Source: a virus
IMG/VR virus record: IMGVR_UViG_3300025093_000002
Span: 28,089 to 92,088 of that record
Reading direction: 5' to 3' (one strand)
Length of the DNA stretch: 64,000 nucleotides
Shown: positions 591 to 64,000 of the stretch, in pieces
Layout of the letters: each line of letters begins with the position of its first letter
Numbering within the stretch: the stretch's first letter is position 1
The notes under the pieces: model-generated
What the model was told of the DNA's origin: nothing
Seen by the model: only the letters and a program-made list of their open reading frames with translations
Database searches by the model: none
Translations under genes and position numbers: made by a program

Positions 591-959
591 TTACCCCTGT
601 GCTGCTATCGGCCCGAGCAGCTTGCGCACCTGAGCGCGCCGCGCGGCCATCTGTTCTTCGGTGAGTTGTGGAATGTCTTCGGATGCCTCTTTCTCGGCTT
701 CCGTGGGCGGGTTCTTCATGGCGAACTCCTGCCGGCGCGCTTCCTTGGCGAACTCTGCCGTGGAAGGCGCATAGCGGAGCGTATCGCCCGGAACTTCGCC
801 GCGAATGTATCGGCGGCACGTCTCGATGACGGCGCTCTGGTCGATGCCCTTCACTGCGATTTCAAACGCCATGAGCAATCCCTTCGGGTCAGTGTCTTTG
901 GATAGGGGCCGTGAGTTCAAAAGGAGCAGGAGCGCTTTCGCGGCTGTGTCCATAGCCAT
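591..959 (-). CDS. Putative helicase loader/inhibitor-like replication protein
   Basis: Overlaps the end of the initiator-C-terminus gene; AVIETCRRY...APSTAEF pattern; GGAG RBS. Confidence 0.5.
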   Translation of the reverse strand: MAMDTAAKALLLLLNSRPLSKDTDPKGLLMAFEIAVKGIDQSAVIETCRRYIRGEVPGDTLRYAPSTAEFAKEARRQEFAMKNPPTEAEKEASEDIPQLTEEQMAARRAQVRKLLGPIAAQG

Positions 960-1284
960 TCTCCAGAAGGTCGTAGGCGGCGCCGAATACGCCTCGCGGG
1001 CGCTCGCGCTGGGTTGGTTCGGGTTCGTCCTCCCACCGGCCCTGATGCAGCCATGTGCGGGCGTGAGGGATGAATTGAGGGTCTTTGGCAGTGAGCGCCG
1101 GAAGCTGGCGGCGAAGGCCCTGAATGATGTCACTCGGGCTCGTGCCGCGCTTCATTTCCTTCTGCCACTCTGCCAATGCGGCGCGCTTGGCTACCCGGCG
1201 CGGATACAGGCTCCAGAACACGTCGAACGTGGCCTTTGCTTCTGCCTCTGCGTCTTCACGTGCAAATCGCTCGGCAAGTCCCAT
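889..1284 (-). CDS. Stand-alone C-terminal domain of phage replication initiator
   Basis: FDVFWSLYPRRVAK...FIPHARTWLHQGRWEDE signature with no N-terminal HTH. Confidence 0.65.
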   Translation of the reverse strand: MGLAERFAREDAEAEAKATFDVFWSLYPRRVAKRAALAEWQKEMKRGTSPSDIIQGLRRQLPALTAKDPQFIPHARTWLHQGRWEDEPEPTQRERPRGVFGAAYDLLENGYGHSRESAPAPFELTAPIQRH

Positions 1285-1305
1285 TGTTAAGACCTCATTA
1301 TCTGC

Positions 1306-1437
1306 TTAATCATCAATTACGTGGATGAAGGCGTAGAACCCGGCTAGGGCGCCCAACAAGTAGCTTTGGTTGCCGATCAGGATGCCGGAACAGAAGACGA
1401 CTATGGTGAGAGCGGCACGCTCTTTGCGGCGGGTCAT
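1306..1437 (-). CDS. Small membrane protein (43 aa)
   Basis: MTRRKERAALTIVVFCSGILIG...; ATGA-coupled to upstream ORF. Confidence 0.5.
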   Translation of the reverse strand: MTRRKERAALTIVVFCSGILIGNQSYLLGALAGFYAFIHVIDD

Positions 1438-1565
1438 CGAGTACGAGCCGCTTCAGCAAAGGCGTGGATGACCTCGAATGACACCGCCATGCAGGTCCAC
1501 GCGAAAGCGCCGGCCAGACCCAAACAGAACGCACCAATCGCGAACTCAAGGAGCTTGCTTCTCAT
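1434..1565 (-). CDS. Small membrane protein (43 aa)
   Basis: MRSKLLEFAIGAFCLGLAGAFAW...; ATGA-coupled. Confidence 0.5.
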   Translation of the reverse strand: MRSKLLEFAIGAFCLGLAGAFAWTCMAVSFEVIHAFAEAARTR

Positions 1566-1759
1566 CGCGCGCCCCTTTGCCGACGCGCATGGTCGTCGCG
1601 CATAATCTGGTTCAGTTTCTCGACCTGCCTCGCCTCGTCAGGCTCCCATAGAGCGGAGGCTAAGGGCTGGTACCAAGGCCAGTGCCCGTAAAGAGCGCGG
1701 ACCCAACAACATCCGAAAAGAACCGCCGGCGCCGTGATAAGGATAAGCAACCCAATCAT
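1562..1759 (-). CDS. Small membrane protein
   Basis: N-terminal hydrophobic helix; ATGA-coupled. Confidence 0.55.
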   Translation of the reverse strand: MIGLLILITAPAVLFGCCWVRALYGHWPWYQPLASALWEPDEARQVEKLNQIMRDDHARRQRGAR

Positions 1760-1980
1760 CGGCCTGCCTCGTCGTCTGCTAAGAGCGGCGCTCCGGGAGC
1801 GTAGATCGGTGCGCGCTCGACGCTGGCATCGACGACAGCGAACACGACCAGAACCGCGACAATCAACATCCCAAGCAGCATCGGCATGAACATCGCTTCA
1901 GCAGCCTTCTCGGCTCGCTTGCTGCGTTCAAGGCGCTCGATTAGCTCTTGGGTTGTGAGATGGCTTAGATCGGTTCTCAT
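1756..1980 (-). CDS. Small membrane protein
   Basis: Single TM segment; ATGA-coupled. Confidence 0.55.
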   Translation of the reverse strand: MRTDLSHLTTQELIERLERSKRAEKAAEAMFMPMLLGMLIVAVLVVFAVVDASVERAPIYAPGAPLLADDEAGR

Positions 1981-2318
1981 AACGGCGCCTCATCGTCAGG
2001 CGTCATGGGCCGGCGCGGAGCCTTTTCCCAATCAAGGATGAGCTGCGCTCGCTCTTCCCCGGTCATCTTTGAAGAACCGGGCAGCCAATCGAAATGGACG
2101 CGCTGAACACCCTTCTCCAACCACATGTAAGCCACCTTCCGGCCAACAGGCCCGAGCATGTTTCGGAACGCCGTCAGCATGTAATTCAGGTCAGTGATTT
2201 TGCGCCGCAGCATCAACTCTTGCGCTTCGAGTCTTTCAACCTTGAGTTCCAGCCGCTCGATTTCTAAACTCATATCGACAAGCGTATCGACTACCTGGGT
2301 GTTTTGCTCGTAGCTCAT
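1977..2318 (-). CDS. Hypothetical phage protein
   Basis: Coupled ORF in early operon. Confidence 0.6.
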   Translation of the reverse strand: MSYEQNTQVVDTLVDMSLEIERLELKVERLEAQELMLRRKITDLNYMLTAFRNMLGPVGRKVAYMWLEKGVQRVHFDWLPGSSKMTGEERAQLILDWEKAPRRPMTPDDEAPL

Positions 2319-2623
2319 GCCTGCCTCGCTTTAGTCATGGCCGCGTAGACGCGGCGGATGGTTTCTGAGGGTGACGGGTAGTCGGCAAACGGCGTGATGG
2401 CGGTTACGCCATTCTCGCGCATCACGTTCATCGCTTCCTCTAAGCCGGCGAGAACCATCGCGTCGGTCGGCTTGTCATGAAGCGTCGCCGAGATCGGGGC
2501 GAAATCGTAGTAGTGCGCGCTGGGAAGCTGCCCCTTCCTAACGTCGTCCTTGTGTCCGCTGCCGCCACAATACGGGCACGACATGCCGACATCGTTCCCG
2601 TCGGGTGATAGACTGGTTCTCAT
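2315..2623 (-). CDS. Hypothetical protein with CPYCGGSG zinc-finger motif
   Basis: Same motif recurs in 52329-52670. Confidence 0.6.
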   Translation of the reverse strand: MRTSLSPDGNDVGMSCPYCGGSGHKDDVRKGQLPSAHYYDFAPISATLHDKPTDAMVLAGLEEAMNVMRENGVTAITPFADYPSPSETIRRVYAAMTKARQA

Positions 2624-2874
2624 TTTTCGCCCTCAGTAGAGAGAGCCGCGTCGACCATATGGGTGTAGATGCCCGTCCAATCGTCTGCGGTCTTTAACGA
2701 TGCATAGCCGGAAGCAATCATCTCGGACGTGGGCTCGCGCATCGCCTTTATCGCGGCTCGGGCAAGTCGCAACTCAAGGCGTTCATTGCCCTTGAGATGA
2801 TGGGCTAAAGCGCCGAAGTTCTTGCCTTCTTCCAAAATGGCCTTGCCGACCTTCTCAACCATGCCTTGGTTCAT
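2620..2874 (-). CDS. Hypothetical phage protein
   Basis: GKAILEEGKNFGALAHHLKGNERLE shared with 52329-52670. Confidence 0.6.
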   Translation of the reverse strand: MNQGMVEKVGKAILEEGKNFGALAHHLKGNERLELRLARAAIKAMREPTSEMIASGYASLKTADDWTGIYTHMVDAALSTEGEK

Positions 2875-3176
2875 GCCGCCCTCTCCTGCTCTGAAGCCAC
2901 CTGAACGGCCCAATCGATTGCGTCCTGCGCGCTGCGAAGAATGACCACGTCAGGTCCGCGCCATTTGTCCGCGAACGCCTGCTGGTTCTCGTTCAGCTTC
3001 TTCCCGTAGCCTTTGGCGCTCGACTTCACCTCGACAGGCCAGCAGCGGCCACGGAAGCCCACCAAGGCGTCAACAGGCCGGTCCAGCGGCTCGACGCTGA
3101 ACCCGCACTGGCGCAGCGCCGCGAAGACTTCCTTCTCGGCAACGTCACGGCGCTTGGCGTAGCGGTTCAGGCTCAC
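2871..3176 (-). CDS. Small PD-(D/E)xK endonuclease (VRR-NUC/resolvase-like)
   Basis: PVDALVG...VEVK motif; occupies the slot of RusA in prophage B. Confidence 0.65.
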   Translation of the reverse strand: MSLNRYAKRRDVAEKEVFAALRQCGFSVEPLDRPVDALVGFRGRCWPVEVKSSAKGYGKKLNENQQAFADKWRGPDVVILRSAQDAIDWAVQVASEQERAA

Positions 3177-3227
3177 TCGTCGTTCTCCGTCATTTCGGGG
3201 CAGATCCATGCAGCGAGGCCAGCAGCC

Positions 3228-3623
3228 TTATCTCGCAGCCAGATCGCAATCTTCATCCGCCGTTCGACGCTCAAGAAGCGCACGATAACGGGCGGTCTGT
3301 TCAATGAATGCGGCATGGTCTTTCCTCGCTCTTGAGAGTTTCGCGCGATTGGCTTTCGCCACCTCAGCCGCCCTGTGAAGTTCAAGCATTTCCCGAAATT
3401 CGACGTGCGCGGCTTCCTTGTGCCAGAAGCTTCGGACGCGCCGTTCGGTCCATTGTTTCCGTGGGTCATTGCGGTAGGGGAAAAGCTTGGCGAGCAGCTC
3501 GTAAGCCGTGCCGATGGTGGCTTTGACGTTGCCGCCACCGCCGATTTCCCTGACGTATGACCGTGCCATAGCTACGTCGTGCATGTGCTTCTGCTCGTCC
3601 GTAAACGCGGGTGACTTGTCCAT
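3228..3623 (-). CDS. CII-like/HTH transcription regulator
   Basis: WTERRVRSFW helix; positional counterpart at 53937-54311. Confidence 0.45.
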   Translation of the reverse strand: MDKSPAFTDEQKHMHDVAMARSYVREIGGGGNVKATIGTAYELLAKLFPYRNDPRKQWTERRVRSFWHKEAAHVEFREMLELHRAAEVAKANRAKLSRARKDHAAFIEQTARYRALLERRTADEDCDLAAR

Positions 3624-3978
3624 GATTGCGGGCGTCCTTTCGGTCCATGTTGCTGTTCATGAGCAACACGCCTGACGAAAGGAAGACTGACGTGGATACC
3701 TTCGGACGAGACGCGCGAGACCTGCCTGCAAGCGATGACGCGCGCCGTTCCGGTGAAATGGCTGCCGGGGCCATAGAAACGCCGGCTGTAATTCTGGACT
3801 GGCATTACGCCAGATCGCCTTTCGCTATGGAGCTTGCTCGCGAGAGGCTTGGTTTGCTTGGCACCGCCGCGCCGAGCACAGGAGACGGAACCGACATGTG
3901 GTCCCAGTACGGTTCCGTCTCCGCCCCTGCTCCGGTCGCCGCAAACTGCAATAGGCGTCTGTGGGTGGTGCGCTGATG

Positions 3979-4611
3979 TCATGCTGCGACCTCGAACAGG
4001 TCTGCCTTGACGTTGCTGCCCCACTGGTCGGCCATAGCCGCAGCAATGCCGGCGAACGTCTCGGAGCGGAGCTTCTTACGGTCAGCGGAAGGAGGCATAC
4101 GGAAGACACGCTGCTCACGGCCCTCGACAACATTGGTCGGGACGAGCGCCGGAAGATTTTTCAGCCAGAGGCTGGTGGCCTTAGTCTCACCATGACCAAA
4201 CTGCCATGGTTGGATTGTCTGCGTCGGGTCCGGGATGCCAAACAGCCGCTTAGGATGCCCAAGCATGATGGGGTTCTCGACCGCGATGCGCGGGATTGGA
4301 GCGTTCCAGAGCAGCATGAAGAACTGCGCAGCCGCACCCATCTTAGCCCATCGGTCGGCTTCCGGGCCATTGTCCTTGTTCATGCCCGCGTAGAGATGCT
4401 TGGCCCCGCTGTTGGCGAGGTAGGTGCATTCTGGGTGGGCAATCATCAAATCCCAGCGCTGCCCATAGGCAGCGGCTATCGCATCGCCATGAATGTGGAA
4501 CTGGCTGCCGTCATCGGCCGGTTGGATATCGCAGGACCAGGCGTCGTGGCCACGCTCACGAAAAGCGCGGCGGACAGCACCCGAACACTCGCAGGCGACG
4601 AGAACACGCAT
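3979..4611 (-). CDS. Phage DNA cytosine methyltransferase-like protein
   Basis: MRVLVACECSG SAM-binding start, AHPEC catalytic motif, VENP motif. Confidence 0.75.
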   Translation of the reverse strand: MRVLVACECSGAVRRAFRERGHDAWSCDIQPADDGSQFHIHGDAIAAAYGQRWDLMIAHPECTYLANSGAKHLYAGMNKDNGPEADRWAKMGAAAQFFMLLWNAPIPRIAVENPIMLGHPKRLFGIPDPTQTIQPWQFGHGETKATSLWLKNLPALVPTNVVEGREQRVFRMPPSADRKKLRSETFAGIAAAMADQWGSNVKADLFEVAA

Positions 4612-4830
4612 TCAGACAGCCCCCGCCCTACGCGCCACGTCTTCAGGGCTGCGCATGGTGTAGCGAACGGCGTGGTATTCATCGCCGCTGAGCTCGATGT
4701 AGCCGGGACGCGCGCTCTGACGGGGCTTCTTCCAAGCGGTGAACGCCTTGCGGGCTTCCCAGCCAATCATGGCCGCGCCGATAGAAACGCAGACGAGCAA
4801 CCAGACGATTTCGTTGAAGTGCTGTTCCAT
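4612..4830 (-). CDS. Small membrane protein
   Basis: TM helix; C-terminus near-identical to 55381-55629. Confidence 0.6.
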   Translation of the reverse strand: MEQHFNEIVWLLVCVSIGAAMIGWEARKAFTAWKKPRQSARPGYIELSGDEYHAVRYTMRSPEDVARRAGAV

Positions 4831-5094
4831 CTACTCGCCCTCGTTTTCGTAAGGTGCGTTCCAGCCGGGTATCTGGCGGGCTTTGCTGCCGGAGGTGATG
4901 CGTTCGTGCGCGTCTCGGATGTCGCCGTCCCATTCGCGCGATGCTGCGATGATGCTCTCGCACCGGTTGCGCTCTGCCTGGATAGCCTTGGCGATAGCTT
5001 CGAGAACATCGGCCTTGAACGGCGCGCGTTGGGGCATGGCCTCTACAGCGGCAGCAGCGGTTGTCAGGATATCGGCGGGCATGTTCTTGAGCAT
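4831..5094 (-). CDS. Hypothetical phage protein
   Basis: AIAKAIQAERNRC pattern; abutting ORFs. Confidence 0.55.
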   Translation of the reverse strand: MLKNMPADILTTAAAAVEAMPQRAPFKADVLEAIAKAIQAERNRCESIIAASREWDGDIRDAHERITSGSKARQIPGWNAPYENEGE

Positions 5095-5298
5095 CTACTC
5101 GTCCTCGCCTTTGAGCTGCTTGTGAACGCGGTTGCGCTCGGCAAGGATGGCCGCGACGGCAACACGAACCAGAGGCGTCTTATCGTGTCCGCCAAGACGT
5201 ATGCGGTCGTGGGTTTTGAAGTCGTCCGGTGGCGGGCATCCAATGACGGCTTCACGGGCGGCACACAAAACTGCTGCGTCAACTCGTTCGTCGCTCAT
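5095..5298 (-). CDS. Hypothetical phage protein
   Basis: MSDER start shared with the 55633-55812 counterpart. Confidence 0.55.
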   Translation of the reverse strand: MSDERVDAAVLCAAREAVIGCPPPDDFKTHDRIRLGGHDKTPLVRVAVAAILAERNRVHKQLKGEDE

Positions 5299-5534
5299 AT
5301 GGTCGCTCCATGAAGACGGGTCGCGGCACGGACTTGGGGTTGGTTTTCGAGGAACGTCCGAGCCATGCCGCTCATCGAAGGCGCACAGGACGAGAGAAGA
5401 TCGCGCGAGTGTTCACGCCCTTCGATGTTGAGATTTGCGCCCCTGACGACCTGGAGGAGGAAGCCGCCAGGGGCATTCCACGTCGCCGGGAGGAGCGAGC
5501 GCGTGGATGGGTGATTGGTGTGGAGAGGCATGGG

Positions 5535-5831
5535 TCAGCGCTCCCCGGCTTCGGAGAGGATTGCTGCTGCAATGCGCTGGCCATGGCGATACCAGCTTGG
5601 TCCGAATGCATAGGCGTTAGTTTCCGGGCCTACACCCTCGGAGCGCGCTATCTCGGCCGCGCGCTTCATGCCTTCTGCGAAACAGCCGTTCAGATGACCT
5701 GCGATGTAGTCACGCATTTCGGCATGCGACATCGGTGCGCTCAAGACGTGCGCCATTTCACGCGCGAGTTCCGCCCTATCTTTGCTTGGGGTGCCGGTCA
5801 TGCGCTCGTTCCGGTCGGTGTTCTCGCTCAT
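5535..5831 (-). CDS. Hypothetical phage protein
   Basis: Homologous to 56232-56534 (MTGTP.KDRAE, FAEGMKRAAEIA). Confidence 0.6.
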   Translation of the reverse strand: MSENTDRNERMTGTPSKDRAELAREMAHVLSAPMSHAEMRDYIAGHLNGCFAEGMKRAAEIARSEGVGPETNAYAFGPSWYRHGQRIAAAILSEAGER

Positions 5832-6121
5832 GACGAGGCCTGTTCGATGGAGGGGGTATGAGCGGGAGGGGTGGGAAGAGGCATCCAGTGCGTGAATGTG
5901 TCGGCTTCGAAGTTGTCGCCAGCCTCATATGCTTCGGCGTAGCTATCGCGGACGTACGGGTCATAAGTGTCGTCAGGCCACACCCACAACTGCGCCTCAG
6001 CGTTCCATGCGACGAAGACGAGCGGCGACGAAGTGCCGAAAGTGGACGGCTCACGATAGGCCAAGATTGGCGTCCCGTTCTTCGGCGCGGTCTCAATCGG
6101 CTTCCAGGTGTTCTCGCTCAT
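5828..6121 (-). CDS. DUF551-like protein
   Basis: WKPIETAPK...THWMPLP signature. Confidence 0.75.
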   Translation of the reverse strand: MSENTWKPIETAPKNGTPILAYREPSTFGTSSPLVFVAWNAEAQLWVWPDDTYDPYVRDSYAEAYEAGDNFEADTFTHWMPLPTPPAHTPSIEQASS

Positions 6122-6161
6122 GCGATGGCTTCCTTTCCGGTAGTGGTGGGGAGGGAAATGC

Positions 6162-6596
6162 TCATGCGGCGTTCTGCTCAAAATCTTCCGATTGAACCGA
6201 ACCAGACCGATCGACGCCGCTTTCGAAGATCCACTGCCGAAATTGAGAAGGCTCAACGTGGGACTTGATGAACTCAAGCAAAGCGCGATCACGAGCGGAT
6301 TGCAGTTCTTCCCGCCGCGCGCGCTCAATGCGTCCGCGCTTATGGGTGATGAGTTGCAGCGCCGTTCTCTTATATTTGAGCGAACGCCTGGCACGAGCAG
6401 GCCACGTCGGGTCCGAGAAACGGCAGACGCCGAGAGCCTTCAACTCCAGCTCGTACTCAATCTCTGCGACGGCCGACTGGAGATAGGCATAGGCGTCGTT
6501 GCAGTCTTCGACTGTTTCGATTTCATCGACAGACCAACCAGCCGCGATTTCGATGTCGGGGATGAAGATGTCCTCGAGGTGCTGGCTCTCGCTCAT
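6162..6596 (-). CDS. Hypothetical phage protein
   Basis: Coupled ORF; occupies the slot held by the N6A/N4C methyltransferase in B. Confidence 0.6.
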   Translation of the reverse strand: MSESQHLEDIFIPDIEIAAGWSVDEIETVEDCNDAYAYLQSAVAEIEYELELKALGVCRFSDPTWPARARRSLKYKRTALQLITHKRGRIERARREELQSARDRALLEFIKSHVEPSQFRQWIFESGVDRSGSVQSEDFEQNAA

Positions 6597-7123
6597 GCTG
6601 CGGCTTCCCCTTGGCGTGTTGCGCGGGCGGGGTCCTGCTCATGAAGCGAGCTGATGTAATCCGGCAGTTTCCCGTCGCGAAGCAGGCGGCGGAACATCAC
6701 GCGGGCGGCGAGGCCATACCCGGCATGGGTCTGCGCTTTCGCGGAAATCTCGAACGTCTGGAGCGAGCCGTATCCGAGCTCGGCGTATGCACGTTCACGC
6801 CCGCCGAACTCTTCGACAAGCTCATCGAACGGGAGCTTGGGCGACGGGCCTTCGTCCTTCGGCAACCAAAACGGCTGCCGGCGCGATGCGTCGATGATGA
6901 ACTGCCAGATGGGCGGCGAGGACTTGAACCAACCACGCTCAATGCGGATCGGATCGAAGCACTGGAGAAGAATGGCTTCTCCGAGGAAAGCGCCCTTCAA
7001 CTGCAACATCATTTCGATGCCACCGGGAAGCCAAGTCCCCAAGGTCCGCTTGCGGGCATTCACGTCGGCAGATGCGCCGATGCGGATAGGTCCGCCATTC
7101 GTGGGCTGGGCGACGTAAATCAT
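6593..7123 (-). CDS. GIY-YIG/T5orf172-like protein
   Basis: MIYVAQ...PIRIGAS...R...E...GWF pattern. Confidence 0.55.
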   Translation of the reverse strand: MIYVAQPTNGGPIRIGASADVNARKRTLGTWLPGGIEMMLQLKGAFLGEAILLQCFDPIRIERGWFKSSPPIWQFIIDASRRQPFWLPKDEGPSPKLPFDELVEEFGGRERAYAELGYGSLQTFEISAKAQTHAGYGLAARVMFRRLLRDGKLPDYISSLHEQDPARATRQGEAAA

Positions 7124-7353
7124 GCCGCCACCGACCGACGCTTGGCCTCGTCCGCCTCAATCCAGTCCATAACGCGCTGGAAGCTCTCGATGCGAAAATT
7201 CCGGCCGTTCTTCACCTCGGCCAGAAACTTGCTGTCGTTGACGGCTTCTTTCGACATGCCCGAAAAGCTCAGGCCGTATCGACTTGCGTGCGCCTCCGCT
7301 CGTTCAAGGAGCTTCTGGCGGATGAGGTCGGAGGTGATGTGCTTCGTCTTCAT
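7120..7353 (-). CDS. cro: Cro-like repressor (prophage A)
   Basis: Small HTH divergent from cI with operators in between; probably leaderless. Confidence 0.7.
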   Translation of the reverse strand: MKTKHITSDLIRQKLLERAEAHASRYGLSFSGMSKEAVNDSKFLAEVKNGRNFRIESFQRVMDWIEADEAKRRSVAA

Positions 7354-7360
7354 AACCCCA

Positions 7361-7436
7361 TATGGCGGGACGCATCCCGAAAAGTCAAGGGACGCATCCC
7401 GCTACCGTCAAAATATTTTTCATGGGATGGAATCCC
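7361..7436. promoter_or_regulatory. OR-like operators of A and cro promoter
   Basis: GGGACGCATCCC at 7367-7378 and 7389-7400, GGGATGGAATCCC at 7424-7436; minus-strand TTGACT at 7383-7388. Confidence 0.75.
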
Positions 7437-7438
7437 GC

Positions 7439-8110
7439 ATGAATGACGCGATGCACAAACGAATCAAGGAACGGCTTGAAAGCCTTGGGATGTCCGCAGC
7501 GGCGGCTTCAAGGAAGGCCGGCCTGTCGCCCGACTTCATTCGGGACATGATGCGGAAAGGTGCTAGGCCAGGAGCGGAAAACCTCGCCAAGTTGGCGAAG
7601 ACGTTAAAAACGTCGCCCGAATATTTACTCCAAGGTAACGAGCCAACGCGGACCATAGACGTAGTTGGGATGCCGGTGATCGGGGTAATCGAGGCGGGGC
7701 AGTTTCGAGACATCACGCTCATCAATCAGGACGAAGAGTATCCGATGGTGAACGTCGTGCAGGACGATCGCTTTCCGCATGCTCGGCAATACGCGCTGAG
7801 GGTGAGCGGCGATTCGATGAACAAACTATTCCCGGATGGCAGCTACGCGATTTGCGCGGAGTTTGCCGATACTGGCATGCGCCTGAAGGACGGCCTGGTG
7901 CTGCACGTCGAGCGCTACATCGCAGGGACGCACCTCGTGGAGACGACGTTGAAGCAGGTCGAAAGCTCGAACGGAAAGCGCTTCCTTGCGCCGCGAAGCA
8001 CTAATCCTCGTCACAAGCCCGTCGAGATAACCGAAGACACCGACTTGTCCGAACTCAAGGTGCGCGGCCTCGTCATTGGCAGCTACACTCCCCAGCATTT
8101 CGGCTTCTGA
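7439..8110 (+). CDS. cI: CI-like repressor, HTH plus S24 autopeptidase (prophage A)
   Basis: N-terminal HTH; VSGDSM serine and TLKQ lysine dyad. Confidence 0.9.
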   Translation: MNDAMHKRIKERLESLGMSAAAASRKAGLSPDFIRDMMRKGARPGAENLAKLAKTLKTSPEYLLQGNEPTRTIDVVGMPVIGVIEAGQFRDITLINQDEEYPMVNVVQDDRFPHARQYALRVSGDSMNKLFPDGSYAICAEFADTGMRLKDGLVLHVERYIAGTHLVETTLKQVESSNGKRFLAPRSTNPRHKPVEITEDTDLSELKVRGLVIGSYTPQHFGF

Positions 8111-8113
8111 GCA

Positions 8114-8209
8114 TTGCGTCTAATTTTTAGACGGTAGATATACGGTCCTTATCTTTCTTCTCTAAGAGTTAGATATAGAGACCATATATCTTGCGTCTAA
8201 TTTTTAGAC
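8114..8209. repeat. Iteron-like repeats flanking an AT-rich tract (putative ori A)
   Basis: TTGCGTCTAATTTTTAGAC at 8114-8132 and 8191-8209, each internally palindromic. Confidence 0.65.
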
Positions 8210-8589
8210 TCAATGGTTTTGCGAGGGCGCTTCCCGTTCGGCGGGTTCTTTCGCACTTTGGCGACGAACGGCTTCGTCCGCTCTCTCACCCACTTCTCAT
8301 CCCCCATGAACGGCATCGTGTAGATCTGGCTCTCCGCGTGATAGCGGGTGATGAGCAGGAAGCCGGCTTCCTCAAGCTCGACTAGCGCGGTCGCCAGCGT
8401 CGTGCGGCTCATGTGCGCGTGCTTCGTCAACCAGGTGTAGCTGGGCTTCAACTCTTCCCTCGCCTCTGGCTGAAAGAACGTCGCGAATAGCAGGCCGACG
8501 CGCACCGCGCTCGCGCCCACTTCATTGCACCGCGCGAGCTCGTAGAGCCAATCGACGCGGTTCTGGTTCCATCGCTGCACATAATCCAT
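8197..8589 (-). CDS. Winged-HTH protein resembling the N-terminus of phage replication initiators
   Basis: PSYTWLTKHAHMSRTTLATALVELEEAGFL; convergent with cI. Confidence 0.7.
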   Translation of the reverse strand: MDYVQRWNQNRVDWLYELARCNEVGASAVRVGLLFATFFQPEAREELKPSYTWLTKHAHMSRTTLATALVELEEAGFLLITRYHAESQIYTMPFMGDEKWVRERTKPFVAKVRKNPPNGKRPRKTIESKN

Positions 8590-8602: not shown

Positions 8603-8676
8603 GGGAACGGTCCCGTTCGCGCAATCCAAATAATCGGGATTGGTCCCTTGACGCGGGATTTGTCCCGTGCTTATCT
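8603..8676 (+). promoter_or_regulatory. OL-like operators and pL-like promoter of A
   Basis: GGGA-N4-TCCC at 8603-8614, 8636-8647 and 8655-8666; TTGACG at 8648-8653. Confidence 0.75.
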
Positions 8677-8738
8677 GTTCTGGACAAAGCGAGCGGCCCC
8701 GACGACTTCCCGCCGCTCTCAACACCGGGAGAACCGAA

Positions 8739-9064: not shown

Positions 9065-9128
9065 CCGAATGCTCCGAGCGGTTCGCCGCTCTCAACACCA
9101 CCGGCCAAGGGCCAGCAGGGAGAACCAG

Positions 9129-15673: not shown

Positions 15674-15873
15674 GCCGCGTAAGAGCATTCACGCGCTCGG
15701 AAATCATGGACGCTGCACGTGCCGCCGCAGAGAACGGCATGTGTGCCCGCCTGACGCCCGATGGAGAAATTGAGTTCACGCCAGAGCCTCGGAAGCGCAG
15801 TATGCCGAAACCGACGCCGGAAGAGCTGCTGGAGGGGTTTCTGAATGGAAGGCAAGTTGGTGGGCGTGCATAG
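15670..15873 (+). CDS. Putative excisionase/recombination directionality factor
   Basis: Small ORF overlapping the int start. Confidence 0.5.
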   Translation: MSRVRAFTRSEIMDAARAAAENGMCARLTPDGEIEFTPEPRKRSMPKPTPEELLEGFLNGRQVGGRA

Positions 15874-16855
15874 GGTCAAGGCCAAGCTTAAGGATGGAAC
15901 CGAGGTCGAATACCACTACGCCTGGCGCGGTGGACCTCGGATGCGTTCACGGCCTGGAACGAAAGCCTTCAGCCAGGAATTCGTGCGACTGACACGCGAC
16001 CGGCCTCAGAAAGTCTTGGAAGCGTCGTTCGGATGGCTGATAGACGACTATCTCAAGAGCGCGCATTACCAGAAGCTGCGGCCTAGCACCAAGCGCGATT
16101 ATGACCGTATCATCGGCGCTATCAAGCTTCGGTTCTCTCCCATGCCTATCGGTGCAATAGAGGCGCGTGGCGCGCGCAAGGCGTTCAGCGACTGGCGAGA
16201 CACTATGCGGGACACGCCGCGCTCTGCCGACATGCACATGGCCGTTCTGGCGCGCATTCTGTCTTGGGCGAAAGACCGCGAACTCATATCGAAGAACCCG
16301 CTAGAGCGGATATCGAAGCTCCACAGCGGCAGCCGGAAGGATGTCATCTGGACGCCCTCCCAGATCGCCGCAATCATGAAGGCCTCGCCTCACATCGTTG
16401 ACGTGGTGAAGATTGCGCTCTGGACTATGCAGCGGCAAGGCGACGTTCTGACCATGCCGACGCTGGCGCATTCTGACGACATGCTCTGGATTGTGCAGGG
16501 AAAGACCGGAGCACGCGTTCGCGTCCGGCCGGCAGATGAATTACAGCCGATCCTGACGCGGGCGAAGGAAGCCAACCGCCAGCGCGTCCTCGTGAACAGC
16601 TACGGGCAGAATTGGACTTCAAGCGGCTTTCGCGCGTCGTGGCGGAAGGAGCTGGCTCGCCTCAAGATTGAAGGCGTGACGTTCCACGATTTGCGTGGAA
16701 CCGGCATCAGTTACGCATATGCTGGGGGGATGGATATCGAGCGGATCGCTGAGATATCAGGGCACTCTAAGGGCGAGTGCGAAGCGATAATCCGCAAGAA
16801 CTACCTGGCGGGCGGCGACGTGATCGAGGCGATCAGAGCAGGAACAAGAGTGTAA
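15845..16855 (+). CDS. int: Tyrosine integrase
   Basis: TMQRQGD (R), FHDLRGT (HxxR), SGH and NYL catalytic residues; adjacent to att. Confidence 0.92.
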   Translation: MEGKLVGVHRVKAKLKDGTEVEYHYAWRGGPRMRSRPGTKAFSQEFVRLTRDRPQKVLEASFGWLIDDYLKSAHYQKLRPSTKRDYDRIIGAIKLRFSPMPIGAIEARGARKAFSDWRDTMRDTPRSADMHMAVLARILSWAKDRELISKNPLERISKLHSGSRKDVIWTPSQIAAIMKASPHIVDVVKIALWTMQRQGDVLTMPTLAHSDDMLWIVQGKTGARVRVRPADELQPILTRAKEANRQRVLVNSYGQNWTSSGFRASWRKELARLKIEGVTFHDLRGTGISYAYAGGMDIERIAEISGHSKGECEAIIRKNYLAGGDVIEAIRAGTRV

Positions 16856-50864: not shown

Positions 50865-51350
50865 TTACCGTGCAGGCCGTAGATATCGCCCGTCTGCCGC
50901 CCGTCGCTTCGCATGAGCCCTAACGCCGTGCATCACCGTCGTGTGGTCCTTGCCGCCAAGCCGATGACCGACCTGGGGCAGCGAGAACCGCGTCTGGCGG
51001 ATGGCCCAATACATGATTGCGTGACGGGCCTTCACGACCTGCTTGTTGCGCCGCTCGGATATGATTTCGGCCGGATGGACGCCGAAAACTTTGCAGATCC
51101 GGGCCATGATGATGGCGATACGCTGGTTCTGCGCGCCATAGCTGAAGCGCTGGAGAACCGCGCTGGCTTGCTGCGCTTCCATAGCTGCCATCTTGCGACG
51201 GGCCGCGATGCGCTCCATCTCCGCGACTTCCGAGCGCATCATGACGACGGCCGGCAGCTCGCGCTTGGCGACTGGCTCCAATTCGCGCTGCGGGTTCGAT
51301 ACCTTGAACCGCGCATTCGCCATGGTCTTGGATGAACTGACTGCGAACAT
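50865..51350 (-). CDS. DnaA C-terminal-like HTH protein (copy B)
   Basis: Near-identical to 100-585. Confidence 0.8.
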   Translation of the reverse strand: MFAVSSSKTMANARFKVSNPQRELEPVAKRELPAVVMMRSEVAEMERIAARRKMAAMEAQQASAVLQRFSYGAQNQRIAIIMARICKVFGVHPAEIISERRNKQVVKARHAIMYWAIRQTRFSLPQVGHRLGGKDHTTVMHGVRAHAKRRAADGRYLRPAR

Positions 51351-51352
51351 AC

Positions 51353-51769
51353 TCAATGCCTCTGTGCTGCGAGCGAGATGCCGTACTCTTCCGCCACGCT
51401 CTGGATGGTTCTTTTGCCCGCGAGGGCGTCGGCTAGTGCCTGCACCTTTTCGGGCGGGCACGGTGGGCTGTCGTCGGTTTCTGTCTTGTGCTCGATGCGC
51501 GGCCGGCGCGAATATTCGAGCGCCTTCTGCATGTCCCGGCACACGCTCACGAAGCGAGGAACAGCCGGCGCTTTGTCCAGGCTCTGCCCCTTAACGTCGC
51601 CAGCAGTAAACGCTTGGCAGGCGCGAACAATCGCTTCGTCCTCAAGTCCCTGTACGTCGCGCTCTATCGTGGCCATAAGCACGTCGTGGTCAGTGCCTGG
51701 AAATTGCGGGAAGGCGTTGAAACAGGCCGCTATCTCTGCTCTGGTCCTGTCTTGCATGGGATACCTCAA
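51353..51769 (-). CDS. Putative helicase loader/inhibitor-like protein
   Basis: AIVRACQAF..GDV.G...AP; same slot as 591-959. Confidence 0.5.
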   Translation of the reverse strand: MRYPMQDRTRAEIAACFNAFPQFPGTDHDVLMATIERDVQGLEDEAIVRACQAFTAGDVKGQSLDKAPAVPRFVSVCRDMQKALEYSRRPRIEHKTETDDSPPCPPEKVQALADALAGKRTIQSVAEEYGISLAAQRH

Positions 51770-58365: not shown

Positions 58366-58401
58366 TTGTGCGCTGCGGGCCGTGGAATTATGATCCCGGA
58401 C

Positions 58402-59046
58402 ATGAACCAGCTACGGGTATTGCGCGAGAAAGCGGGACTGTCGCAGTCGGCCTTGGCCGAGCGCGCCGGCACGTCTCAACCGCAAATCCGTCGCCTGGAA
58501 GCCAGCCAGCGAAAATTAACCAAGCAGTGGGCCGAACGGTTAGCGCCTCATTTACAGGCCAGCGCCCAAGACCTACTCTTCTCGGATTCTGAAGGGACGA
58601 CACGAGAGGTTATCGGCCTGCCCGTTCTCGGCAAGAGCAGGGCGGGCGACTGGCTGGATATTTCGATTATGGATGATTGGCACGAGCCGGAAGTAATTCA
58701 CGTCGCGCGCGATCCTCGTTACCCGCACGCAAAGCAGTATGCTCTCAGGGCCGAGGGCGATTCCATGTCGGAGCTTTTCCCGGATGGATGCTATGTGACG
58801 GTCGTCAATTTTGCCGAGAGCGGTTTGGGCTTTCGACCTGGCATGGTCGTCCATGTCGAGCAGCGAATGGGCGGCACCTCGCTCGTCGAGACGACCATCA
58901 AGCAAATCAGCGACGACCTGAAATGGCTCCTGCCCCGGAGCAAAAACCCCGTTCACAAGCCTTTGCCGATCGAAGGCAGTGCCGCGACCGAAATTGAGGT
59001 CAAAGGCATCGTGACGGGCAAGTGGGAACCAATCAGTTTCGATTGA
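58402..59046 (+). CDS. cI: CI-like repressor, HTH plus S24 (prophage B)
   Basis: LSQSALAERAGTSQPQIRRLE; EGDSM; TIKQ. Confidence 0.9.
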   Translation: MNQLRVLREKAGLSQSALAERAGTSQPQIRRLEASQRKLTKQWAERLAPHLQASAQDLLFSDSEGTTREVIGLPVLGKSRAGDWLDISIMDDWHEPEVIHVARDPRYPHAKQYALRAEGDSMSELFPDGCYVTVVNFAESGLGFRPGMVVHVEQRMGGTSLVETTIKQISDDLKWLLPRSKNPVHKPLPIEGSAATEIEVKGIVTGKWEPISFD

Positions 59047-59172
59047 ACGGCTAGAGATACAACCTTCTATCTCAGAGCCACTACACCTAAGAGCTAAACC
59101 TTTTAGGAATTTGCCTTTACCTATTCGGCGGCAACATCTTGCCGGGGTAGGTATGCAACATCTTGCCGGGGT
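59047..59172. repeat. Iteron-like repeats plus AT-rich tract (putative ori B)
   Basis: GCAACATCTTGCCGGGGT at 59131-59148 and 59155-59172. Confidence 0.65.
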
Positions 59173-63589: not shown

Positions 63590-63988
63590 ATGGGGCGCGC
63601 TCTCGTCATCATCAATTCGGACGCCGAACGCCACAAGGCCATGTCTTGGCTGCGTCAAGCGCCGTGGAACACCCGCGTCGAGTTCAAGGGGCCAAAGCGC
63701 ACCTTACCCCAGAACGACCGCCTCTGGGCCATGCTGACGGACGTATCCACTCAACTGACGTGGCACGGCGTGCGGCTTTCGCCCGACGACTGGAAGCTCA
63801 TGTTCCTCGACGGCTTAAAGCGCGAATTGCGCGTGGTGCCGAATATCGAGGGCAACGGCTTCGTGAACCTGGGCCGCTCGTCGTCCGACTTGGACAAACA
63901 GGAGATGAGCGACCTTTTCATCATCATCGAAGCGTTCGGCGCAAAGCATGGCGTCACGTTTCACGACCGTCAGGAGCGAGCCGCATGA
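63590..63988 (+). CDS. ninB: NinB-family protein
   Basis: Near-identical to 13145-13543. Confidence 0.85.
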   Translation: MGRALVIINSDAERHKAMSWLRQAPWNTRVEFKGPKRTLPQNDRLWAMLTDVSTQLTWHGVRLSPDDWKLMFLDGLKRELRVVPNIEGNGFVNLGRSSSDLDKQEMSDLFIIIEAFGAKHGVTFHDRQERAA

Positions 63989-64000
63989 GCCTCCCCCTCA

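Follow-up and report, generated by a model that had tools for sequence, protein, structure and literature searches.

The 64,000-nucleotide stretch analysed here (the window) is the last 64 kb of the 92,088-bp IMG/VR record IMGVR_UViG_3300025093_000002, and it holds early genes of a lambdoid phage, phage A, together with those of a related phage, phage B. In phage A, a 130-aa winged-helix gene (8197-8589, minus strand; the N-half) lies to the right of the repressor gene cI and converges on it, and a 131-aa gene (889-1284; the C-half), which matches a different part of the same kind of initiator, lies 6.9 kb away on the identical strand. We propose, with a probability of roughly 0.6, that the phage uses a lambda-O-type initiator that is split at its internal origin and works as two proteins. 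What looks new, judging from sequence, is that a known type of initiator with an internal origin is here apparently divided, its N-half and putative origin having moved into the immunity region. The computational tests that were run (homology of the halves, conservation of the putative origin and the existence of fused relatives) support the two-protein initiator that a preliminary description of this DNA had put forward. That description had also set the two genes about 7 kb apart and had the winged-helix gene converge on cI and end within a 19-bp repeat; the coordinates bear this out, with all features in their described places.

Two genes matching different parts of one initiator

The N-half is predicted by AlphaFold2 (AF2) to form a winged helix (predicted local distance difference test score, pLDDT, 88.6), and its gene has a GC content at third codon positions of 0.82. 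Its homologs are all short, between 92 and 143 aa, and comprise 15 near-length clusters and nine cluster representatives among 1.8 billion. When 15 family members were compared with the PHROGs, phrog_270 was matched by 14, the O-like families phrog_391 and phrog_678 by 11 and 10, and phrog_186, a 'DnaD-like helicase loader', by five; the initiator match of the window's own N-half covers profile positions 63-108. With the exception of one 'DNA binding protein' matched by a single member, the named PHROGs that the family matches are all replication families, either initiators or a DnaD-like helicase loader, and no transcription-regulator PHROG was matched by any of the 15. The Pfam model HTH_36 is matched at E <= 0.05 by nine of the 15 members (best E-value 9.6e-9), and one homolog carries a precomputed PF13730 assignment. 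The best structural neighbours of the N-half in BFVD are phage proteins of 200-400 aa, labelled as helix-turn-helix (HTH)-domain proteins, replication protein O, replicon initiation proteins and replisome organizers. Aligning the N-half profile to single fused proteins with hhalign gave weak matches, and PDB sequence searches with either half returned nothing useful.

The C-half, marked by the motif F..FW.LYPRR...FIPHARTWLHQGRWEDE, matches positions 170-258 of 383 in phrog_270, a 'replication initiation protein' (E-value 7e-22), and phrog_9327, a 'primosomal protein' (E-value 1e-19), with no match in Pfam. The two open reading frames (ORFs) thus correspond to N- and C-terminal portions of known initiators, phrog_270 among them; a failure to align in this way had been named beforehand as counting against the reading. 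The AF2 model of the C-half is a helical domain spanning residues 1-80 (pLDDT about 88). Stand-alone C-halves form 58 clusters, and the domain also occurs fused behind various N-terminal DNA-binding domains: the 249-aa protein P0081 joins a winged helix to a C-domain 53% identical to that of 889-1284, the proteins P0060 and P0082 are fused as well, P0083 has a DUF1376 N-part, and in the fused gp45 of Arthrobacter phage Leona (260 aa) the corresponding part is 44% identical to the C-half. Neither gene of the window encodes both domains, which O-type initiators combine in a single polypeptide.

Downstream of the C-half lies a small gene whose longest ORF, 591-1133, overlaps 889-1284 and whose true start is probably near 953-959. 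It had been labelled loader-like, a label that finds no support: the ORF matches only phrog_18745 (function unknown), has no Pfam match at E <= 0.1 and contains no recognisable AAA+ or DnaC/P-type loader domain. A phrog_18745-family gene always follows the C-half, the cultured Rhizobium phage RHph_Y25 included, and in many cases the two genes share about 70 nt at the 3' end of the C-half. The small gene is a candidate for a third part of the replication module.

One-piece relatives have origin-like repeats where the two halves meet. A search with the N-half profile through 401 genomes of the order to which the Nitratireductor host belongs (see below) gave 17 matches, 16 of them in ORFs of 196-405 aa, so that the one-piece form is the rule in that order. 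Two such ORFs, in L031 (274 aa) and L029 (405 aa; L numbers denote the loci compared), hold both domains, their C-terminal part matching the hidden Markov model (HMM) of the C-half. In all five long genes examined, three to five iterons closely follow the part that codes for the winged helix. In L031, one frame runs through the winged helix, five CAGACCGGACA repeats, an AT-rich stretch and the C-domain, and several of these repeats complete dyads, for example GGACACCCATGTCC. Because the fused relatives carry iterons and an AT-rich tract at the domain junction, the separate genes of phage A look like the product of a fission of a one-piece gene at its origin linker, with the N-half ending in the first iteron.

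The putative origin and its conservation

The element that follows the N-half gene is, from the outside inwards, a pair of outer sites, a pair of inner inverted repeats and a 32-bp AT-rich centre that the inner repeats bound. The outer sites are the 19-bp repeat TTGCGTCTAATTTTTAGAC, which occurs exactly twice in 64 kb (none expected from 100 shuffles) and each copy of which contains the palindrome GTCTAA-ttt-TTAGAC; the TAG stop codon of the N-half gene (8197-8199) lies inside the second copy. The inner repeats, GATATACGGTC (8137-8147) and GACCATATATC (8180-8190), match at 10 of 11 positions. Neither the 19-bp repeat nor the inner motif is found elsewhere in the window. The 100 bp at 8121-8220 are the most AT-rich of the whole 92-kb record (AT 0.69), and the single-stranded element folds as one long hairpin (-24.3 kcal/mol, z = -7.06). 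The arrangement noted at the outset, repeats enclosing an AT-rich tract bounded by inverted repeats, is thereby confirmed. Dyad iterons and an AT-rich tract lie directly 3' of the N-domain coding sequence, as in O-type initiators; the element itself is intergenic apart from the last codons and stop of the N-half, and so does not sit within a reading frame as the origin of an O-type initiator does. An origin inside or beside the C-half gene was considered and rejected, since no iterons are present in or near that gene.

Relatives of the A-type N-half were found in five viral contigs, five further metagenome contigs and one bacterial genome. After removal of duplicate contigs and of a near-identical copy (L011), ten distinct loci remain, the window included, and in all ten an element of about 105 bp with two-fold symmetry follows the N-half gene, its AT-rich centre retained. 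Its consensus reads CGTTGAGT-CTAA-AAA-TTAGAC, AGATATAYGGTCY, AT-rich DNA, AAAGACCRTATATCT and GTCTAA-AAA-TTAGAC-TCAACG. The inner repeat AGATATAYGGTCY/AAAGACCRTATATCT is near-invariant over L005-L016 while the N-half proteins are 40-98% identical. In the outer palindrome, the inner arm is CTAA, TCAA, ACAG or GTGTAAA and co-varies with the SRxT residues that open the recognition helix; GTTCAA goes with both SRAT proteins. The C-terminus of the N-half, ...ESKN, is conserved in relatives because the overlapping outer site encodes those codons. One of the ten loci is an integrated prophage in a 266-kb Nitratireductor contig, with the element intact. We consider it probable that the element is derived from an origin and is bound by the N-half; an A-type origin may then follow a symmetric design in which two inverted sites surround a putative unwinding centre and the additional, invariant inner repeat would be bound by a further factor.

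The neighbouring repressor differs among loci, being either a short XRE-type or an S24-type protein, and the place of the N-half and its element is constant, which makes the two a cassette between the repressor gene and the OL-side operon. The same arrangement occurs in cultured phages. In RHph_Y25, an HTH gene (101 aa, annotated 'HTH family transcriptional regulator') is followed by two dyad repeats CACGCAGTGAGTGCGTG, an AT-rich tract and a convergent 'repressor protein C', and phage Mae-JY35 (L020, PP438426) has a B-type N-half, iterons identical to those of phage B and the same layout. In every locus with enough downstream DNA (8/8: A, B, L005, L006, L007, L010, RHph_Y25 and Mae-JY35), small C-half HMMs detected a C-half 5.4-7.5 kb downstream on the same strand.

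Phage B had been described as mirroring phage A. This holds for the arrangement, in which cI, an AT-rich tract, iterons, a convergent winged-helix gene and a C-half recur, and fails for the sequence, tblastn finding no similarity between the winged-helix genes of A and B. The third most AT-rich 100 bp of the record fall in the putative origin of B, where an AT-rich tract (59047-59130) is followed by two exact 18-bp repeats, GCAACATCTTGCCGGGGT, at 59131 and 59155; these repeats, like those of RHph_Y25, are tandem dyad iterons, and the inner inverted repeat of the A-type is absent from B-type origins. The second-type N-half of phage B has its best match in the O-like family phrog_678 (positions 44-120 of 346, E-value 2e-7) and is 35% identical to RHph_Y25 EVC10_049 and 85% identical to the Mae-JY35 gene. 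Its C-half matches only one family, again phrog_678, at positions 221-296 of 346 (E-value 6.5e-10). In each of the two phages, then, the N-part adjoins cI and the C-part belongs to the early operon, which in phage A is the one on the cro side.

Control of the N-half may come from the OL side. The motif GGGA-N4/5-TCCC, present in three copies between the N-half start and the rightward early promoter, occurs twice more at OR (7367-7379 and 7389-7401), and in six of the eight loci compared (A, B, L005, L007, L008 and Mae-JY35) operator-like words common with OR precede the N-half start by 10-30 nt. Owing to the position of these words, the N-half gene is probably silent in the lysogen and turned on upon loss of the repressor, and the separate control of the N-half and origin from the OL region that had been suggested for them is plausible. 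A scan for E. coli-type sigma-70 promoters found no promoter; the alphaproteobacterial-type promoters described here were read by eye.

Proposed mechanism, known systems and competing explanations

We infer DNA binding, origin firing, contact between the halves and the timing of expression as follows. Once the repressor is lost, a promoter by the OL operators would make the N-half, with its transcript running into the origin. Dimers of the N-half would occupy the two inverted outer palindromes on either side of the AT-rich centre and, once bound, would open it. The C-half, with or without the product of its partner gene, would then recruit the host helicase and primosome. Classical lambdoid genetics assigned origin specificity to the N-part of O and partner specificity to its C-part. 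We hold it tentatively, at slightly less than even odds, that the two-protein initiator works and that its origin and binding domain belong to the immunity cassette, which the repressor would gate directly at OL and which could be exchanged independently of the recruiting half.

Were this so, origin and immunity specificity would travel together, and the helicase-recruiting half would be a generic, swappable part. If the split-initiator model holds, the phages would allow the separate roles of the two halves of an O-type initiator to be studied in a natural setting. A split initiator would further supply a precise candidate origin for temperate phages of rhizobia, Nitratireductor and "Microcystis"-associated bacteria, several of them cultured, whose genes are now annotated merely as 'HTH regulator' and 'hypothetical protein', and it would correct that annotation, the small HTH gene beside the repressor being probably no transcription regulator. 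For genetic work in the Hyphomicrobiales, the AT-rich palindrome is a small cassette with a candidate origin.

Comparison with lambda shows how much of a familiar layout is kept. In ori-lambda, iterons followed by an AT-rich tract lie within the O gene (PMC3349717, PMC3610622). Phage A resembles O and ori-lambda in its N-terminal winged-helix domain, in the dyad iterons of about 19 bp and the AT-rich tract 3' of it, and in a C-terminal domain for recruitment, and the Hyphomicrobiales-type one-piece relatives keep the lambda-O layout exactly. Phage A differs in having two polypeptides encoded about 7 kb apart, a putative origin that is separate from the C-half gene and is placed between cI and the OL-side operon rather than in the cro-side operon, two inverted sites flanking the AT-rich centre as opposed to four tandem iterons on one side, and no P-like loader gene. 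The Bartonella run-off-replication locus, an ordinary O-plus-helicase module with its origin inside the gene (PMC3610622), was rejected as a homolog and serves only as a reference for the one-piece layout.

Two further systems share part of the design. The origins of Staphylococcus aureus pathogenicity islands (SaPIs) and phage-inducible chromosomal islands (PICIs) have iteron sets that flank an AT-rich region directly 3' of the rep gene, so that the order of gene 3' end, repeat, AT-rich tract and repeat is alike; however, the SaPI Rep is a large primase-helicase fusion, whereas the gene next to the element in phage A encodes a DNA-binding domain of 130 aa only. DnaD-type organisers, which consist of a winged helix and DDBH2, are alike in the phrog_186 matches of the N-half family. 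The C-half model aligns to the DnaD-like structure 2zc2_B (Z 4.9, root-mean-square deviation 2.8 A, 66/75 residues, 18% identity) at a score within helical-bundle noise and tied with unrelated helical proteins; DnaD was the top Foldseek row for the C-half, at a level that is not significant. Unlike them, the C-half has no sequence-level match to solved DnaD domains, nor any other HMM match in PDB.

Several observations weigh against a split initiator. The window's N-half on its own matches PHROGs weakly (E-values of 1e-3 to 3e-3) and reaches 15.4 bits against Pfam HTH_36 (PF13730), where the cut-off is 25, so that the case rests on the whole family. The C-half has no clear solved fold relative by Foldseek or VIA, its DnaD-like score lying within noise, and no binder has been assigned to the inner inverted repeat. 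A plasmid collection held no homolog of either type of N-half. Among the phages, L009, which is a fragment, has no C-half within 10 kb, and the complete genome of RHph_N2 has a phrog_678-type C-half (EVC05_069) and no N-half at E <= 0.1. RHph_Y25 pairs a B-type N-half with an A-type C-half; the halves are thus not co-inherited, and their mixing between phages means that a specific contact between N- and C-half is not implied. The strict co-variation of N- and C-half types that A and B had suggested was abandoned on the same evidence.

If the two halves do not initiate replication, the N-half and element could be left over from an origin and retained to control or exclude replication, with lytic replication starting elsewhere or by another route; the truncated domain and its sites would silence or titrate initiation of the phage's own prophage or of a superinfecting relative with the same type of origin. 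The module does lie in the immunity region by cI, where lambdoid phages keep exclusion genes, and lambda offers a precedent, plasmids with part of ori-lambda (iterons ITN3-4) and oop blocking rep-lambda phages in E. coli (PMC3349717). The shuffling of N- and C-half types between phages is what would be expected of a specificity cassette, and the lack of any N-half in RHph_N2 also suits this explanation. Yet these phages yielded neither a full-length initiator nor another origin-like repeat, and the gene lists of the record and of RHph_Y25 showed no other replication gene, be it a helicase, a loader, a primase or a one-piece initiator. The repressor-type operators upstream of the N-half start point to repression in the lysogen rather than lysogenic expression, and a decoy needs no AT-rich centre of the unwinding type, which is nevertheless conserved in 10/10 loci. 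We consider such a remnant unlikely. Still less probable, in our judgement, is that the winged-helix protein is an ordinary transcription factor whose operator, or a bidirectional terminator or roadblock, is the element. The PDB fold matches of the N-half are generic winged helices only, of the ArsR, MarR and CodY types, several family members weakly match the MarR and GntR models of Pfam, and the element stands between convergent genes and can form a long hairpin; these facts would fit a regulator or a roadblock, although the named PHROG matches are replication families with the one exception given above, the sites are found beyond the 3' end of the gene and coincide with no promoter, their motifs are found nowhere else in 64 kb, and no T-run follows the hairpins. 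Moreover, in the fused relatives the corresponding iterons separate the winged-helix part from the C-domain of an initiator.

A long AT-rich palindrome with inverted repeats of protein size might also be an attP, a telomere-resolution site or the centromere of a plasmid-prophage, which we regard as barely credible. The element is intact within the integrated Nitratireductor prophage, and attP or another recombination site was rejected on this ground, as an unbroken element inside integrated DNA rules it out. The ORFs that resemble integrases, recognised solely from sequence motif and position and not from a scan of family libraries, lie elsewhere, at the distal end of the other early operon (window 15845-16855 and record 2485-3582), and the annotated integrase of RHph_Y25 is far from the element. 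No early gene of ParA, ParB or protelomerase size was seen in the gene list, which speaks against a maintenance site. The split initiator remains the reading that we prefer.

Feature coordinates, source record and neighbouring genes

The features discussed are collected below. The early region of phage A is a mirror-image lambdoid immunity region, whose cro-side operon runs leftward up to the window edge.

Features of phages A and B in the window and of related loci; positions refer to the window unless a locus is named
Feature	Position	Strand	Remarks
N-half (phage A)	8197-8589	-	stand-alone winged-helix (HTH_36-like) gene for a putative origin-binding domain, 130 aa
C-half (phage A)	889-1284	-	stand-alone middle/C-terminal domain of phrog_270-type initiators, 131 aa
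Small partner gene after C-half	591-959	-	start uncertain, ~953-959; phrog_18745
phrog_18745-family gene	51353-51769	-	
phrog_18745-family gene, L006	16643-17044		
phrog_18745-family gene, L019	38312-38671		
Putative origin, two-fold symmetric element	8108-8216	.	outer site, inner repeat, AT-rich centre, inner repeat, outer site
Outer site P, cI side	8114-8132	.	iteron-like 19-bp repeat
Outer site P, gene side	8191-8209	.	overlaps last codons and stop of N-half gene
Inner inverted repeat, left arm	8136-8148	+	AGATATACGGTCC
Inner inverted repeat, right arm	8179-8191	-	AGATATATGGTCT
cI-type repressor	7439-8110	+	HTH_3 and Peptidase_S24; convergent on N-half gene
cro-like gene	7120-7353	-	divergent from cI
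OL-type operators GGGA-N4/5-TCCC	8603-8615, 8636-8647, 8655-8667	.	three copies between winged-helix start and rightward early promoter
Rightward promoter-like site	8647-8652 (CTTGAC), N17, 8670-8675 (CTTATC)	+	read by eye; overlaps operators
cI (phage B)	~58390-59046	+	
Putative origin (phage B)	59047-59172	.	AT-rich tract, then two 18-bp iterons, by gene 3' end
N-half (phage B)	59172-59525	-	winged-helix gene of second type, 117 aa
C-half (phage B)	51690-52052	-	120 aa; at C-half position

Phages A and B had been taken for tandem prophages, for which we found no support. The source record has a terminal overlap of 99 bp (window 63902-64000), and its start coincides with a 148-bp exact repeat, the second copy of which lies at record 41545 (window 13457). 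Because the record begins exactly at this repeat, it is probably a circular assembly that merges two related circular phage genomes of about 41.5 and 50.4 kb via the common repeat; the merge path is probably a figure-of-eight in the assembly graph and not a pair of tandem prophages.

A protein resembling DnaA domain IV (Bac_DnaA_C, E-value 3e-20) is encoded in both phages, at 100-819 and 50865-51542, each on the minus strand. The protein is 95% identical between A and B, and its gene lies just upstream of the late region (a 312-aa ORF, then the terminase); the Mae-JY35 copy is annotated 'chromosomal replication initiator protein DnaA'. As an origin binder this protein (100-819) is unlikely, since it is near-identical in A and B though their putative origins share no sequence. 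GafY is a DnaA-domain-IV-like activator of gene transfer agents (PMC9632790), and by position and type of homology the phage gene more likely resembles GafY than a replication protein.

A hairpin that resembles a terminator, CCCGTTCGGCGGG and then TTCTTTCG, is found at 8233-8245 on the plus (cI) strand, in the 3' portion of the N-half gene. If this hairpin were the terminator of cI, the cI transcript of the lysogen would span the whole putative origin. On the OL side, the 16-nt word CGCCGCTCTCAACACC occurs at 8711-8726 and 9084-9099 (plus strand), ahead of the first two genes of the operon, and is conserved in Mae-JY35 (L020, about 8395-8440), where a GAGCGGC...GCCGCTC hairpin lies next to it; the word might act in RNA as a leader or nut-like element.

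At the usual place of the N-half, RHph_N2 (L021, MN988533) has a 770-bp unannotated stretch (3089-3858) with no convincing ORF and with a strong hairpin near 3240-3275, followed by a gene for a 69-aa signal-peptide-like protein. Finally, the recorded host of Mae-JY35 is Microcystis aeruginosa, yet its gene order matches that of phage B and the rhizobiophages. Its actual host could be an alphaproteobacterium that accompanies the cyanobacterium; the nearest bacterial locus belongs to a Nitratireductor from a cyanobacterial culture.

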